Part shown: piece by piece, positions 38,501 through 44,500 of the stretch | How the letters are laid out: every line of letters begins with the position of its first letter | How positions within the stretch are numbered: position 1 is the first letter of the stretch | Source: an uncultured Nitrososphaerota archaeon | GTDB lineage: Archaea; Thermoproteota; Nitrososphaeria; Nitrososphaerales; Nitrosopumilaceae | Assembly (NCBI GenBank): GCA_963824385.1 | Contig: CAWGPD010000002.1 | Span: 96,001 to 160,000 of the forward strand | DNA length: 64,000 bases | Direction: 5' to 3' | Program-made: the position numbers

Positions 38501-41500
38501 CTGGGCAAATGGGAGACCGGTATATCTTGGAGATAAGGGTCTAGGGCAAAATGGAAATGGATTTACATTAGAGTATGTCATAAATGAACCTGTAAATATT
38601 CAGACTGTTCAATTAGCAGGTAATAATGTTGCAGTAGGAGTAAGAACTGTTTCAGGATTAGGAAATTATGCTTTTGATCAATCACTACAAGCATACTCAT
38701 TTAACGTAAACAAGGCAAATGTACCAGTTGTTGTTATAATGCCTCAGGTTCTTTTATCCAAACCATACGCTGTGACAATTAATGGACATCCTGCCTTGAA
38801 CCAAGTATTTTATAATAATGCAACACATGCATGGATAGGATTCGAATCAGCCAATGGTGGAATAGTTCAGATAACAGGAGCCCAAGGCAATCAAACTGGA
38901 ATTCCACTTGGTCCACCATATACAGCACCAACAGGTAATGCTGCAATAAGTGAAGCTGACACCTAGCTCATCCGACAATACATCAATTTATCTTTTAATT
39001 GGAGGTATTATTGCAGCAGGAATAGTTGGAATTATAATAGTAAAGAAAATGAGATCAAAGCCAGCTACCAAGTCCTAAATCGTTTAGTAATACCAAAATT
39101 TTCACCTTTAGATTATTAATAGCAAAAGAACAATGAACTACATGCAATGTGGTTGTCATTGTATAAAATGTGGCAGTATGGAATTGTCATCACAACGAGT
39201 TGGAGAGATTGAAAAAGATGGATACTATGATATGCATCATACCTGTCTTAAATGCAAAGTACATTTTGATCATCTAGAGGGCGATGTCTTTGAGTCGTGT
39301 GAAAAGTGTGGATTTAATCTCTAATTGACTTGAAGTAACTTTACTTTGGAATAATAACTGCGCTTATCCCTCAGATCCTTTTGAAGCTCATGAGTAAAGG
39401 CCATGTTTGTAAGTACTTTTGATACGTCTAGTGGAACTGTAGACCAACCATATTCTCTTAGCTGTGCTACCACCTCAGAGACTGTTCTTGCCTTATCAAA
39501 GAAAGCATCTTCAATTAGTGTCTGCATTTTGTTTCTAATCTGATCTTTGTCAACAAATGTAGGTGTAGCAAATTCAGGTTCATGAACCTCAGCATCATCA
39601 AGTGAATGTAGTAATCCAGTTGTGTGTGATGGTGACTGGTCATAGGAATATTCGTATTGAATATTGTTACTGGTAGAGTCTTTGACAAATGATGTCAGAT
39701 TACAGATGACTTGATCTATGCTTTCATTATCTATATAGAAGTCCTTTGATTCTATCTCAATTTCATTTTGACCGTATTTTATCTTAATTCTTGCCATTTT
39801 GTAACTTTCAATCATGATTGATTTGATTTATTTTATTAGCTCTAAGTAGCTTAGAAAACTGATCAAAATATTTACACAACTTATTGGGATTTTTTTTCTA
39901 TATAGTACTAAAAGCAAATATTTTGACTTAATATCGTGGAAAGACGTTCAAAGGCAATAATCATTGCAGTGTGTATTGTTGCAGTAGTAGGAGTATTTGC
40001 TTATTCTCAATATCTATTTGCCGTTCATACGAGTATCTCTATACTTGATAGTAAAATAATACAGAGAAATGATAACAATTCACTATACAATATGACACTT
40101 CAATTCCAGAATCCTTCAATGATTCCTATTAACGTAGGACAGACAGACTTTGTCATATCAGTTAATAATGAAAATCTTGGGACGGGTACACTGCAACCAC
40201 TTGTAATACCACCCATGGGAAAGATTTCCTCACAAGCAGCATTTACTGCAGATAATACAATTCTTGACAAATACAACAAAAGTAATAATATTCCAAATGT
40301 CAAGTTAACTGGAACAAGCAAGTATGGAATATCTGGAATATCAGTTAATGTTCCATTCACATATTATCCAACACAACAAGAAGTCTAGCGAATTTATACA
40401 CGGTTCTTAAAACTAGAAAAATATGCTTACTGTATTTGGATCAATAGCTTATGATACGATAAGAACTCCTACCAAAATTGTTAAAAATGCATTAGGAGGA
40501 GCAGCAACATATGCTGCAATTTCTGCAAGTTTCTTTGTCAAACCTGGCTTGATTGGAGTTGTGGGTCAGGATTTTCCAAAAAGTTATCAAAATATACTGG
40601 AGAGATTTGTTGATACGCGTGGAGTAGTTCATGCAAAAGGTAAGACGTTCAGATATGATGGAAGTTATGATTCAACTTTAAGTCTACGAACGACTAACAA
40701 GACTGAACTAAATGTATTGAAAGATTTCAAACCTGTTGTACCAGAAGAGTATCGTAGATCAGAATTTGTATATCTTGCAAACAATGATCCTGCTCAGAAT
40801 ACTAGAATCATAAAGGAATTTGACAAGGTCAAGTTTTCCATGTGTGATACCATAGAATTTTGGATATCAAGTAAAAAAGATGATGTAATCAAGATGATGG
40901 GTTCTGTGGATTCAGTTGTAATCAATGATGAAGAGGCAAAATTGCTTACGAAGACCCATAATTTGATCAAGGCTGCAAAAAAAATCATGGAATGGGGAAC
41001 AAAGTATGTAATAATAAAAAAAGGTGAACATGGGTCTTTGTTGTTTTATGATGACATCATATTTCCATCACCTGCTTTTTCAATGGAAGATATTGTAGAT
41101 CCTACAGGCGCAGGCGACTCTTTTGCAGGAGGAATGATAGGATATCTTTCAAGTAAAAACAGCACAAAAATGTCAACGATTAGAGAGGCTGCAGTATATG
41201 GAAACATTATGGGTTCATTTGCCGTAGAGAAATACGGAGTGTATGGGATAACAGGATTGAAAAAATCTAACATTACGAAAAGATTTGACAGATACAAAAA
41301 AATGGTCCACTTCTAACAAAGGTTATAGATATCAAATTAAAAAATAAAGTAATGGATGATAAGCTAGATACAATTTTCAAGCTTCAAAAAAACCTAGAGA
41401 AAATGATGAATCTTGAGCGTTATCCAAAAGATACTCAAGGAAAGATTTCTGCACTTTGCACAGCAATAATTCATGAGGCAGTTGAGCTCCAGAGAAATAC

Positions 41501-44500
41501 AAATTGGAAATGGTGGAAAAAACCTACAGCATTTGATGAAGCGGAAGCTCGTGAAGAGTTGATAGATATTTGGCATTTTGTCATTCAGGCATCACTTGAG
41601 CTTAACATGACACCAGATGATATTCTAAAAGAATATCAAAAAAAGAATCAGATAAACAGACAAAGACAGATAGACGGTTACTGAATTTGCTTCAAAGTCT
41701 TGATTGTATTCTTTAGTTGAGAAATACTAGTCTCACCAATTTTATTGATAATTTTTACTTGCTCCTGAAATTTGGACACTTCTTTTTTTGTAATTGTCAA
41801 CATTGGATGCGGGCTTACTGAACCAATAATTTTGTGATCTTGATCTAGTCCATTTTTATACAAACAAAGAAGAGAATCTCCCGATTTGTGCCCTATCGTA
41901 TCCTTTCCACAAAGTATGATTGTATCAATTTTTTCATTTGATATTACAGATTTTATAAGAGAGTCTATTCCCTTATTTTCAGAAAGCAGTCTACCAGCTA
42001 TTGCAATCTCTTTGATAATATCTGAATGTGTAATATCTTTTAGAAGATCAATGCTTGATAGAGTACAAATTGCAATATTTGATGCAGATTCTCCAAAGAA
42101 TACTTCCTCCTCTATTGGAAGAAGGATTCTACACAATTCTCCTGCAATATCTTCAATCAGATTCATCTTTTAGTTAACTTGTGTAATACTTTGGAAATGT
42201 AATGTAGATCATTTTCTGTAACCAAAGGGTTTACTGGCAAACTTAGGACAGAGTTAGCAGCCCAATCAGTAAGAGGAAGTTTGAGATCTTTTTTGTAAAA
42301 TGGAGTCTTGTGTACTGGAATTGGATAGTATGCAGTTGCTCCTATGTCTTGTGCGTTTAGTTGTTTCATTAGTTTATTTCGATTTGCAGTAGCAATTGTA
42401 TAAAGATACCAATTTACATTAACACCATCTCTTTCTTCAGGCAAGATAACATTCAGATCAGATAATAATTCATTGAGTATTGTTGCATTCTTCTTTCTTT
42501 TTTCTAGGAACTTTGGAAGTTTTTTCATCTGAACTTTCACTATTGCAGCACAAATTTCTGGAAGTCTTAGATTTAGTCCAAGTATTCTGGTATCATACCC
42601 ATGAAGCATTCCATGGTTTCGAATCTTGCGCAGTTTTTCAAAGAGAATTTTATCATCTGTAACTATAGCCCCACCTTCTCCAGATGTCATAACCTTAGCA
42701 GCATACATGCTAAAGCAACCCATTTTTGAAAATGTTCCAGATTGTTTTTTCTTGTATGTGGTTCCTAATGATTGACATGCATCTTCTATTATCTCAAGAT
42801 TATGCTTATCTGCAATTTCAGAAATTTCATCCATGTATGAAAAATTCCCATATAGATGAACTGGCATTATTGCTTTAGATTTTTTTGTAATTTTCTTTTT
42901 AAGATCACTTGGATCCATAGTATAATTTTCTGGACGTATATCAACAAATACGGGCTTTGCTCCAACTGATACAATAGCGTTAGCAGTTGCTACAAATGTA
43001 AATGACGGTATCAAAACTTCATCTCCTTGTTTTATGTCAAGGGCATAAAGTGCGGCTTGTAGTGCGGCTGTCCCAGAATTTACTGCTATTGCATATTTTG
43101 ATTTTACAAAAGAAGCCAAAAGTTGTTCAAATTCTTGTACTCTCTTTCCACCAGCATTTGCAGCAGATGTAAGAGATTTCTCTGTTAATACCAATCGTAC
43201 TTCATTTATTTCGTCTTTTTCGATAATTGGTATATTTATTGGAATTTTCAATAATACAGTAGAAAATTTTACGCTATAATTAAACTTCCTAAATTAAAAC
43301 CAATTCTTATATTTTAGAGATATACATCGAGATCAAATGAAAGTACATCTTCAAGAAAATGATCCTAGTTACAAGATATTTTTGTATGTTTTCTATATTA
43401 GTGCGTTCATAATGTGTTCTATCACCATTTTTGGATTTTATGCTATGATTCAGGAATGGTCTACCAAGGGCACATATGTAATGGGAGAGGTACTTGTCAA
43501 GACAGAATTTCCAACTCCTCATTTTGCCAAGTTAATGACATGGTTATTTTTTTCAGCAATTGTCAGTTGGTATTGTGTCTCACGAATAGGTTGGAAAAGG
43601 ACAGTTACTGTCTCAAAATGGAAGCTTGCAATGGTACAACTAATGCTCTTGGGATTAACAGTAATTACACTCTATGAAACAATTTACAATTTTATTCTTC
43701 TTAGTTCTCAGATCACTGCAGGAATGATAAACGGAGTAACTCCAGATATTGATTCACTCACAGTAGCTTATCCAGATCCTAATAGGCCATGGAATCTTAT
43801 CTTTGCAACAAAGATATTTCTTGCTGCATTTTTGATTAGTGCACATGCATTCTATCTTAGTACACGTCCTAGAAAGTCAGTTCAAGAACTAGATGCTTAA
43901 ATTTATAGGAATACATGTTGGAATCTGACTAAAATGGATGTTACAGAAAAAATCAAACTAGTAACTAGGGAACCTACAGAAGAAGTGGTAACTCAAGAAG
44001 AGTTATTGAATCTGTTTAACACCAATCCACATCCCAAACACTACATCGGCCTTGAGATATCTGGTTTTATGCATTTGGGAAGTTTGATACTTACTGGATT
44101 TAAAATAAATGATTTTATCAAAGCTGGAGTCAAGTGTACAGTATTTTTGGCAGACTGGCATACTTATCTAAATAACAAACTTGGAGGAGACTGGGAAAAA
44201 ATACGAATGGTATCAAAATACTATGCTGATGCATTCAAGATGTTCTGTCCAGGAGTTGAGATTGTTGAAGGCTCTCAACTTTATGAATCAAAAAGAGGTT
44301 ATTGGTTGGATCTTGTTAAATTTGCAAAGAATATGTCACTTGAACGTACTATGCGTTCACTTACAATAATGGGAAGAAGTACTGAGAAAGATAAGATTGA
44401 TCTTGGTCAACTTTTCTATCCTCCAATGCAAGCTGTGGATATTCATACAATGGATTTGGATATAGTACATGCAGGAATGGATCAAAGAAAGATTCACATG

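Follow-up and report, generated by a model that had tools for sequence, protein, structure and literature searches.

A soluble MtrA-like protein of ammonia-oxidising archaea points to an unstudied step in vitamin B12 handling

The 64,000-nucleotide stretch of DNA analysed here (the window), which belongs to an uncultured archaeon of the Nitrososphaerota, encodes a protein whose relatives are publicly annotated as "tetrahydromethanopterin S-methyltransferase subunit A", and it raises the question of what a member of the MtrA family does in an ammonia-oxidising archaeon (AOA). The match to PF04208 (MtrA) extends over residues 21-158 (E 6.4e-24, 85 bits against a cut-off of 25). The C-terminus of this 162-residue protein is hydrophilic, the chain is about 80 residues shorter than that of the anchored MtrA, which runs to about 240-250 residues and ends in a juxtamembrane segment and a transmembrane helix, and the AF2 model closes with an amphipathic helix (residues 148-161), with no membrane anchor, as the preliminary description of the gene had stated. 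The scores in three related families remain below the respective cut-offs, namely 75.7 bits against 249.15 for the MtrA equivalog (TIGR01111), 88.3 bits against 279 for the soluble MtrA paralog "methyltransferase" PRK14053 (NF010654), and 98 against 568 for the fusions of a Cys-rich domain, MtrA and DUF4346 (NF002128). Of six features by which the TIGR01111 family may be recognised, the protein retains the domain with its fold and the His/Glu pair, and departs from the family in the meander consensus, the anchor and the equivalog-level score; an MtrH partner was not found. The genes discussed below are listed in Table 1.

Table 1. Genes of the MtrA-like locus and its surroundings, in window coordinates.
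Feature	Position	Strand	Remarks
Ortholog of PPOX-class (PNPOx_N) split-barrel gene	34487..34886	-	tblastn, two frames; 7 kb from MtrA-like gene
BluB, 5,6-dimethylbenzimidazole synthase (B12 lower ligand)	35074..35784	+	TIGR02476, 238 bits vs 150; divergent neighbour of PPOX-like gene
dUTPase_2/MazG-type all-alpha NTP pyrophosphohydrolase	41352..41684	+	110 aa; PF08761; convergent with MtrA-like gene
MtrA-like soluble predicted corrinoid-binding protein	41678..42166	-	162 aa; PF04208
DegT/DnrJ/EryC1-type PLP aminotransferase	42163..43251	-	PF01041, 384 bits; directly upstream of MtrA-like gene
CbiH/CobJ precorrin-3B C17-methyltransferase (B12 synthesis)	45964..46752	-	TIGR01466, 315 bits vs 246; in syntenic block

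The counterpart of the protein's His loop, GKDTIGHKSG, is the loop around the cobalt-ligating His84 in the solved MtrA (PDB 5laa, E 4.6e-18), and the alignment equates H93, E63 and N64 with His84, Glu54 and Asn55. These three residues, and also G92 and G96, do not vary among 34 sequences drawn from six families, across which the MtrA-like family exhibits 13 invariant columns and reading frames that are intact in nearly all matches; S62, G66 and P17 are likewise invariant among 16 AOA sequences. The conserved residues map onto the cobalamin contacts of 5LAA, which include His84, Glu54, Asn55, Thr53 and Gly57 (PMC4915002). The AF2 model (pLDDT 87.6) superimposes onto 5l8x with a TM score of 0.78 and an rmsd of 1.8 Å, and onto 5laa with a TM score of 0.76, according to Foldseek. 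The protein most likely binds a cobamide in the base-off/His-on mode via H93, with E63 as the hydrogen-bond partner; for this prediction, which was made earlier from family membership, invariant ligand and contact residues and a confident model of the MtrA fold can now be adduced. The His-Glu ligand pair tunes the cobalt in both MtrA and MetH (PMC4915002). A His-on/Glu triad typifies corrinoid proteins with a catalytic role and not carriers. The consensus given for the meander segment of MtrA in the sodium pump, 109-GAIPF-Y/F-x-EN (PMC4915002), is not kept: the window protein has SPHPMLT, without the aromatic residue and the Glu-Asn pair, and what is left of the meander is P121 (at least 90% conserved) plus a Gly in most AOA. 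A cysteine, C34, is invariant throughout the clade and absent from the solved MtrA.

The MtrA family was found in 228 of the 401 sampled genomes of the order and in all 11 sampled genomes of the genus, in line with the earlier counts of 534 of 867 and 57 of 62, respectively. Its short form follows amoA, which was found in only four families (f1, to which the window belongs, f4, f9 and f15): it occurs in 98/112, 7/9, 10/11 and 103/111 of their genomes, altogether in 218 of 243, and in none of the 143 genomes of 14 other families. In the tree, all 30 AOA sequences and 15 short representatives form one clade (SH-aLRT 93), set apart from the canonical-type MtrA sequences, and within it each AOA family clusters with values of 96-99. 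The MtrA-like clade is restricted to AOA. Several AOA genera have lost the gene and retain their genes of B12 synthesis; its role is therefore dispensable.

The immediate surroundings of the gene in the window do not represent its oldest association. Here it is the second gene after the DegT aminotransferase gene on the same strand, with an overlap of 4 nt, and this arrangement recurs in 25 of the 27 loci of f1; in four of the five f4 loci, the DegT gene lies about 2 kb upstream, and it is absent from the loci of f9 and f15. In those other three families, the position directly upstream and on the same strand is occupied by a gene for a PPOX-class split-barrel protein (5/5 loci in f4, 5/6 in f9 and 11/15 in f15), which adjoins the MtrA-like gene in none of the 27 f1 loci. 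In the window, a 1-bp insertion, seen as an indel relative to the same-genus genome G241, divides its ortholog between two frames; this points either to an error of the assembly or to a pair whose members can be separated. We conclude that the PPOX-like gene, rather than MazG or a methyltransferase, is the older, ancestral operon partner of the MtrA-like gene. The two genes also tend to be missing together, with 12 of the 14 f1 genomes that lack the MtrA-like gene lacking the PPOX-like gene too, but 17 of the 98 f1 genomes with the former have no match to the latter at E<=1e-15, and the co-losses may reflect few events, since related genomes are not independent. PPOX-like matches, which may include paralogs, also turn up outside the AOA, in families that do not have the MtrA-like gene (e.g. 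in 52/97 genomes of f10). The PPOX-like protein comprises about 130 residues, with 37 columns invariant in 16 sequences. Its score for PNPOx_N is 56.8 bits (cut-off 28.1), whereas the curated F420-PPOX models (TIGR04023, TIGR03618, TIGR03668) yield 42-50 bits, below all of their cut-offs (79-119); it probably binds FMN or F420, with FAD as a further candidate. Genes of B12 synthesis are found on both sides: BluB and CbiH flank the MtrA-like block, the former separated from the MtrA-like gene by 5-7 kb in 22 of 27 f1 loci and the latter within the block in most of them.

We propose, with a probability of roughly 0.4, that the MtrA-like protein and its PPOX-class partner constitute a cobamide-binding and redox unit for B12 handling in AOA. 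According to this scenario, the gene, which codes for a single soluble domain of the MtrA fold family, has passed down vertically from the ancestor of the AOA, and the protein and its host have shed the ties to methanogenesis, i.e. the anchor, the Glu-Asn end of the meander, MtrH and the pterin-binding DUF4346 module. The MtrA-like protein would hold the corrinoid and the split-barrel protein would pass electrons to it, and this delivery would reduce or recondition oxidised or mis-ligated cobalamin ahead of its use. A more specific variant, which we regard as improbable, describes an AOA-specific repair of B12, in which the MtrA-like protein would capture cobalamin oxidised or blocked by the cell's own nitrogen oxides (nitrito- and nitrosyl-cobalamin), and the partner, with F420H2 or reduced flavin, would strip the ligand and return cob(II)alamin or cob(I)alamin for adenosylation or methylation. 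If true, this would explain why, within the order, the pair is confined to ammonia oxidisers, and it would provide a mechanism for the accumulation of NO2-cobalamin noted in stressed AOA (Heal et al. 2018, cited in PMC6908642). The neighbouring dUTPase could then be regarded as a second damage control, as nitrosative deamination of dCTP leads to dUTP.

Alternatively, the MtrA-like protein could carry or chaperone cobalamin passively, handing it to MetH, class II RNR and methylmalonyl-CoA mutase, and be functionally coupled to MazG/dUTPase_2; we consider this reading unlikely. It is consistent with the conserved cobamide site, with the lack of a methyltransferase partner in the searches given below, and with the presence of B12-binding proteins, a MetH-like frame among them, in the genome. 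In favour of the coupling, B12-dependent RNR acts upstream of dUTP formation, and the two genes, which overlap tail to tail by 7 nt, adjoin each other in 26/27 loci of f1 and 13/15 of f15, although none of the seven other f1 neighbours is kept in f15. However, a His-on/Glu triad is not known from B12 chaperones. MazG is near-universal in AOA: it is found in all 112 f1 genomes, including the 14 without the MtrA-like gene, it remains in place in 8/8 loci from which the latter was deleted, it is not adjacent in f4 (0/5 loci) or f9 (0/6), and it also occurs in the non-AOA families f13 (4/4) and f14 (11/15). Its match to PF08761 (64.6 bits, cut-off 22.9) covers only positions 1-85 of the 162 of the profile, and it matches dimeric dUTPases in the PDB with an E-value of 6e-9. 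With trimeric dUTPase (PF00692) above cut-off in none of 41 genomes of the window's family, MazG is the only recognisable dUTPase there, and ThyX is present; the neighbour is probably the housekeeping dUTPase of the lineage and would feed ThyX. Overlapping 3' ends alone can hinder the separation of two genes. Thus, of the "lock" to dUTPase_2 postulated in the preliminary description, the convergent adjacency stands as an old feature of two families, but the dependence does not: MazG is independent of the MtrA-like gene.

It is also conceivable, and in our opinion quite unlikely, that the protein serves as a methyl-corrinoid carrier that cycles between Co(I) and CH3-Co(III) in a still unknown AOA methyltransferase system, loaded and unloaded by non-homologous enzymes. 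The invariance of the cobalt-tuning His-Glu pair is in agreement with this possibility, and the His-on/Glu triad would fit a methyl carrier equally well; moreover, 25 of 30 scanned non-AOA relatives are fused to DUF4346 and a Cys-rich N-terminal domain, an arrangement that resembles a methyl-pterin:corrinoid module, and it has been suggested that corrinoid proteins, MtrA among them, donate methyl groups to the core methionine synthases. Against it stand several negative results. Neither MtrH (PF02007), the one partner subunit of Mtr that the searches covered and the absence of which had been reported before, nor PterinBD-DUF4346 (PF14251) yielded a match in the window's own genome (86% complete) or in any of the 41 genomes of its family, a profile search did not reveal the core MetE (Meth_synt_2), and in none of the four AOA families do the loci show a conserved methyltransferase next to the gene. 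The MetH-like frame bears a B12 domain of its own, and in an aerobic cytoplasm a reactivation system would be required.

That the MtrA fold has been re-used to bind something else in place of a cobamide, be it a different tetrapyrrole or a nucleotide cofactor, or to act in regulation or sensing, seems to us a long shot. Such a change could account for the loss of the meander motif and for the clade-wide C34, one relative, P0176, carries a fused ArsR DNA-binding domain, genes for ArsR and ArsP adjoin the long form found in relatives outside the AOA, and proteins of the PPOX class frequently have haem, biliverdin or another such tetrapyrrole as substrate or ligand; however, the invariant residues coincide exactly with the contacts to the cobalt, the propionamides and the nucleotide tail seen in 5LAA. 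A relic of ancestral methanogenesis that no longer has a function, suggested by the use of the MtrA family as a marker of that process and by the dispensability of the gene, is hardly credible, because nearly all AOA keep the family (near-core, in 218 of the 243 genomes sampled, a conservation already invoked against this reading), with its invariant columns, mostly intact frames and a clade distinct from the canonical-type sequences.

Among the closest known systems are two proteins of solved structure (5LAA, 5L8X; Wagner, Ermler, Shima 2016, PMC4915002), a cytoplasmic homologue of MtrA from Methanothermus fervidus and the soluble MtrA domain from M. jannaschii, which share the Rossmann-type fold and 33% identity with the AOA protein, and are likewise soluble and of about 160-170 residues, all five contact residues named above having kept equivalents. 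Nonetheless, the AOA protein differs from them in its separate clade and in the absence of the meander aromatic residue and the terminal Glu-Asn, and its host is an aerobe that presumably lacks the Mtr complex and H4MPT-linked methyl transfer and in which MtrH was not found. Outside AOA, its closest relatives are the "MtrA" fusions known from bacteria and from non-methanogenic archaea (NF002128), with 35-39% identity and the same His loop, in comparison with which the AOA protein is a bare MtrA domain, devoid of the Cys-rich domain and placed in a separate clade. MtxA of Methanosarcina (mtxXAH) is another soluble MtrA paralog outside the Mtr pump, but it is encoded together with the MtrH homolog MtxH, whereas the AOA genome has no match to the MtrH family. 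In the logic we propose, a redox protein of the flavin type acts on a corrinoid bound to protein and renders it usable, as in the CobR-type flavin-dependent corrinoid reductases and in CblC/MMACHC; however, CblC and CobR are not homologous to the AOA pair, exhibit other folds and have no MtrA-type His-on site, and the corresponding activity in AOA is our inference.

Much of the cobalamin in the oceans and soils comes from AOA, which rank among its main producers and have to maintain an active cofactor in an aerobic cytoplasm rich in NO and nitrite; a candidate for this step is the predicted corrinoid-binding protein, near-core and restricted to AOA, together with its conserved redox partner. 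The case also matters for annotation and for evolutionary inference from PF04208 matches, which are counted as Mtr or as "methanogenesis remnants", yet include a whole clade of the family that lives in obligate aerobes without a pterin or CoM methyltransferase partner. In AOA, the MtrA-like protein points to a step of vitamin B12 handling that has so far not been studied.

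The MtrA-like gene, which codes for a soluble relative of the methanogen corrinoid subunit MtrA, overlaps a dUTPase_2 gene (hereafter MazG) tail to tail, as stated in the preliminary description and borne out by the ORFs and the Pfam matches (85 and 64.6 bits, respectively). According to the ORF listing the two convergent genes have 7 nt in common, and a DegT_DnrJ_EryC1 gene (DegT) on the same strand overlaps the start of the MtrA-like gene by 4 nt. The MtrA-like protein scores far under every curated MtrA-type NCBIfam cut-off (NF002126, 125.8 against 161; TIGR01111, 75.7 against 249; NF010654, 88 against 279; NF002128, 98 against 568). 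Public names of near-identical proteins and of related loci assign the window to the genus Nitrosotalea (79% identity to Ca. N. devanaterra), and the genome carries amoA. A promoter and terminator scan of positions 41200-43500, of a bacterial type not applicable to archaea, stayed at the level of shuffled sequence.

Genes of the locus and of its surroundings, with positions counted from the start of the window
Feature	Position	Strand	Remarks
PPOX-like ortholog	34487-34886	-	7 kb from MtrA-like gene; two frames, 1-bp insertion relative to same-genus genome G241
tRNA-Val	34919-34994	-	adjoins PPOX-like ortholog
BluB (DMB synthase)	35074-35784	+	TIGR02476, 238 bits (cut-off 150); divergent neighbour of PPOX-like ortholog
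dUTPase_2/MazG gene, 110 aa	41352-41684	+	ORF; PF08761, 64.6 bits; also a weak PRA-PH/MazG-type match
MtrA-like gene, 162 aa	41678-42166	-	ORF; PF04208, 6.4e-24, 85 bits (cut-off 25), residues 21-158
DegT_DnrJ_EryC1 gene, 362 aa	42163-43251	-	ORF; Pfam, 384 bits
CbiE-type cobalt-precorrin methyltransferase	59091-59792	+	side observation

Neighbourhoods were compared in 60 loci of 8-17 kb, picked for long contigs and genus spread rather than at random, and gene contents in an even survey sample of the order, with 401 genomes; the order-wide tallies include two genomes flagged as unpublished (G271 and G260), which alter any count by at most one. In this sample amoA, which marks the ammonia-oxidising archaea (AOA), is present in 111/112 genomes of the window's own family (f1), 9/9 of f4, 11/11 of f9 and 104/111 of f15, whereas the remaining 16 families have no match. 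A convergent MazG gene overlaps the MtrA-like gene or lies within 40 nt of it in 26/27 loci of f1 and 13/15 of f15, and in none of those from f4 (0/5), f9 (0/6) and the non-AOA families f12 and f13 (0/7). The adjacency in f1 says little by itself, because the entire block is syntenic there (two unknown genes, a PfkB kinase, MazG, MtrA-like, DegT, a membrane protein, TyrRS and CbiH). On the other hand, all seven of the remaining f1 neighbours are missing from the f15 loci, and MazG is nonetheless kept; the pair is therefore really old. Overlapping 3' ends alone may make these genes hard to separate.

The preliminary description proposed a passive cobalamin carrier or chaperone "locked" to MazG. 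The adjacency holds in f1 and f15; however, it is missing from f4 and f9, and MazG stays where the MtrA-like gene has been lost, namely in all 14 sampled f1 genomes without it, including 8/8 f1 loci from which it has been cleanly deleted. The distance to MazG is 11-60 kb in f4 and in one f1 genome, unless the two genes are on different contigs. A protein search finds MazG in 112/112 genomes of f1, 9/9 of f4, 11/11 of f9 and 101/111 of f15, as well as in the non-AOA families f13 (4/4), f14 (11/15) and f8 (1/1). MazG is thus independent of the MtrA-like gene, and we regard a chaperone tied to it as unlikely. Since a trimeric dUTPase scores over its cut-off in 0/41 f1 genomes and ThyX is present, MazG is best read as a putative housekeeping dUTPase.

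The absence of MtrH claimed earlier for this genome (86% complete) is confirmed by a profile search with PF02007 and extends to 0/41 genomes of the window's family, 39 of which are at least 90% complete. The relatives outside AOA are mostly fusions of 330-540 aa, in which a Cys-rich N-terminal stretch and the MtrA domain are followed by PterinBD-DUF4346; DUF4346 was found in 25 of the 30 scanned, and in none of the 41 genomes of the window's family. It is quite unlikely that the MtrA-like protein serves as a methyl carrier in some unknown pathway. More specific roles of this kind were rejected: it does not supply a B12 module that a split MetH would lack, for the 838-aa MetH-like frame carries its own B12-binding and reactivation domains, nor a methyl donor for core MetE, for which no Meth_synt_2 match was found. 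A link to thymidylate synthesis, suggested by the library representative P0196, in which one protein unites MtrA, PterinBD-DUF4346 and a thymidylate-synthase-like domain of methanogen type, was likewise rejected: P0196 is a lone representative in a different clade from the AOA proteins, and AOA have ThyX, without ThyA (not found in our searches) and without DUF4346.

Several observations on these partner families may be recorded here. The MetH-like frame (own genome, contig C3, 286444-288960) contains B12-binding and Met_synt_B12 domains, but is too short for the four-module enzyme and its N-terminus looks like the pterin-binding module, so that a separate gene may code for the homocysteine-binding module. 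The ThyX frame (contig C4, 302158-303498, 545 aa) has two Thy1 matches, i.e. a duplicated domain. Another fusion, P0176, joins an ArsR HTH and a Cys-rich domain to MtrA and DUF4346. The C-terminal part of the 'dihydropteroate synthase-like' model TIGR00284 is likewise matched by DUF4346.

The best solved relatives of the MtrA-like protein are M. fervidus' cytoplasmic homologue of MtrA, with cobalamin (5LAA, E 4.6e-18), MtrA of M. jannaschii and MtrA of two Mtr complexes. In the passages of PMC4915002 that describe the 5LAA site, His84 is the cobalt ligand and Glu54 its hydrogen-bond partner, Asn55 contacts a propionamide, Thr53, Lys52-N, Gly57-O and Asn64 contact the nucleotide tail, and Tyr18 and Val61 surround the base. 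The HMMER alignment places H93, E63, N64 and S62 of the window protein opposite His84, Glu54, Asn55 and Thr53, and L61, G66, S73 and L70 opposite Lys52, Gly57, Asn64 and Val61, while a Phe/Tyr position lies 1-2 residues off Tyr18. In a 34-row alignment that spans six families of the order, P17, G25, C34, L60, E63, N64, G87, G92, H93, G96, L99, G106 and I113 are invariant, and S62, G66, R59 and others are additionally invariant among 16 AOA sequences. In contrast, the meander motif of MtrA (109-GAIPF-Y/F-x-EN), proposed in the same paper as the route by which demethylation energy reaches the sodium pump, is lost from the window protein, which has SPHPMLT instead; AOA conserve Pro alone. The 34-row alignment yielded an AlphaFold2 model with a mean pLDDT of 87.6, for which all significant matches in the PDB, seven in number, are MtrA chains (TM 0.74-0.78, rmsd 1.8-2.8 A). 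The protein is thus an MtrA homologue in family, fold and conserved site, and from the contact residues and the modelled fold we infer, with good support, that it would bind a cobamide. Binding of another ligand, or a role as a sensor, is improbable.

MtrA-family proteins occur in 98/112 genomes of f1, 7/9 of f4, 10/11 of f9 and 103/111 of f15, i.e. in 218 of 243 AOA genomes (own genome excluded), and that the gene is a relic is hardly credible. Outside AOA the family is found in f12 (6/10) and f13 (3/4), while the 143 genomes from the remaining 14 families gave no match. The f12/f13 form, about 255 aa long and with 135-143 bits, bears a charged extension at its C-terminus instead of a transmembrane tail; the short form is restricted to AOA. 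The f12/f13 loci (L076-L082) have neither MazG nor the PPOX-like gene as a neighbour; the long form is flanked there by genes for an ArsP_1 permease and an ArsR regulator, and a DUF169 and a Thioredoxin_3 protein are encoded nearby. In a tree of 152 MtrA domains (34 locus rows and 118 of 150 library representatives, 29 with matches of fewer than 110 profile positions and 3 with domains under 120 aa being left out), all 30 AOA rows and 15 short representatives form one group (SH-aLRT 93), with a cluster for each of f4, f9, f15 and f1 (97, 99, 96 and 97). The long f12/f13 form is placed among the DUF4346 fusions, together with canonical-looking rows, one of which has a transmembrane tail. This was a quick IQ-TREE search, rooted for drawing only; the single AOA group with its clustered families fits a vertical descent of the gene in AOA and speaks against its recent acquisition from methanogens.

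Clustering of neighbours outside f1 revealed a 130-aa gene directly upstream of the MtrA-like gene on the same strand. Its product (PPOX-like) belongs to the PNPOx_N split-barrel proteins (56.8 bits against a cut-off of 28.1), nearest among curated models to F420-dependent PPOX subfamilies, whose cut-offs it does not reach, and among solved structures to uncharacterised FMN/FAD-binding proteins; 37 columns are invariant in 16 sequences. By tblastn over the 60 loci it lies 8-194 nt upstream of the MtrA-like gene in 5/5 loci of f4, 5/6 of f9 and 11/15 of f15, and in 0/27 of f1, so three of the four AOA families have an operon-like linkage of these genes. DegT was rejected as a functional partner, as it adjoins the MtrA-like gene only in f1 (it is about 2 kb off in f4, absent from f9 and f15) and was kept in four of the eight f1 deletion loci and gone from the other four. 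In the f4 loci (L056-L060) DegT is separated from the PPOX-like gene by one for an ArsA-type ATPase that has an HSP20-like domain, giving the same-strand series DegT, ArsA, PPOX-like, MtrA-like.

At E<=1e-15 PPOX-like matches occur in 83/112 genomes of f1, 9/9 of f4, 10/11 of f9 and 98/111 of f15, and also in several non-AOA families, where they may be paralogs. In a tally comparison on the 401 genomes, the PPOX-like gene is missing as well from 12 of the 14 f1 genomes that have no MtrA-like gene (the exceptions are G220 and G304), and 17 of 98 f1 carriers of the MtrA-like gene have no PPOX-like match at that threshold. The five f1 genera with the MtrA-like gene in no sampled genome (g6, g11, g13, g15 and g19) yield no PPOX-like match either, and the co-absences may reflect few loss events. 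A complex prediction for the two proteins (score 0.02 against a mark of 0.32) carries no weight either way.

The PPOX-like ortholog of the window may be a true pseudogene or the product of an assembly error, the latter because other genes of the window also look split. Adjacent ORFs at 26141-27148 (-) and 27216-28073 (-) match positions 296-630 (C-terminal half) and 2-271 (N-terminal half) of the model for the beta-CASP ribonuclease aCPSF1, so this gene is split or frameshifted, and ORFs 30642-31592 and 32642-33418 match their models only from position 69-85; the assembly may contain several indel errors. BluB lies 5-7 kb from the MtrA-like gene in 22/27 f1 loci. In the window the B12 synthesis genes BluB, CbiH and CbiE are not gathered in a single operon but spread across 25 kb.

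What MtrAH does in organisms other than methanogens has been called unclear, in passages that do not treat AOA (Adam et al. 2022). In searches of the literature on MtrA and the Mtr methyltransferase, corrinoid proteins and cobalamin in AOA or Thaumarchaeota, we found nothing that treats the AOA gene, and it is not mentioned in the main text and 10 supplement files of an ancestral-reconstruction paper (PMC7554672). These searches gave no literature on DUF4346 and no paper on the AOA MtrA-like clade, on its standing as a near-core gene, on the PPOX-class partner or on the missing pterin module.

We tentatively propose, with a probability of about 40%, that the MtrA-like and PPOX-like proteins constitute a two-protein cobamide-handling unit with a redox or reconditioning function. 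The MtrA-like protein would hold the cobamide His-on, and the split-barrel partner would pass electrons to it. NO2-cobalamin accumulates in stressed AOA, according to a brief citation of Heal et al. 2018 in PMC6908642. In the boldest reading, the unit would repair cobalamin blocked by nitrite or NO.
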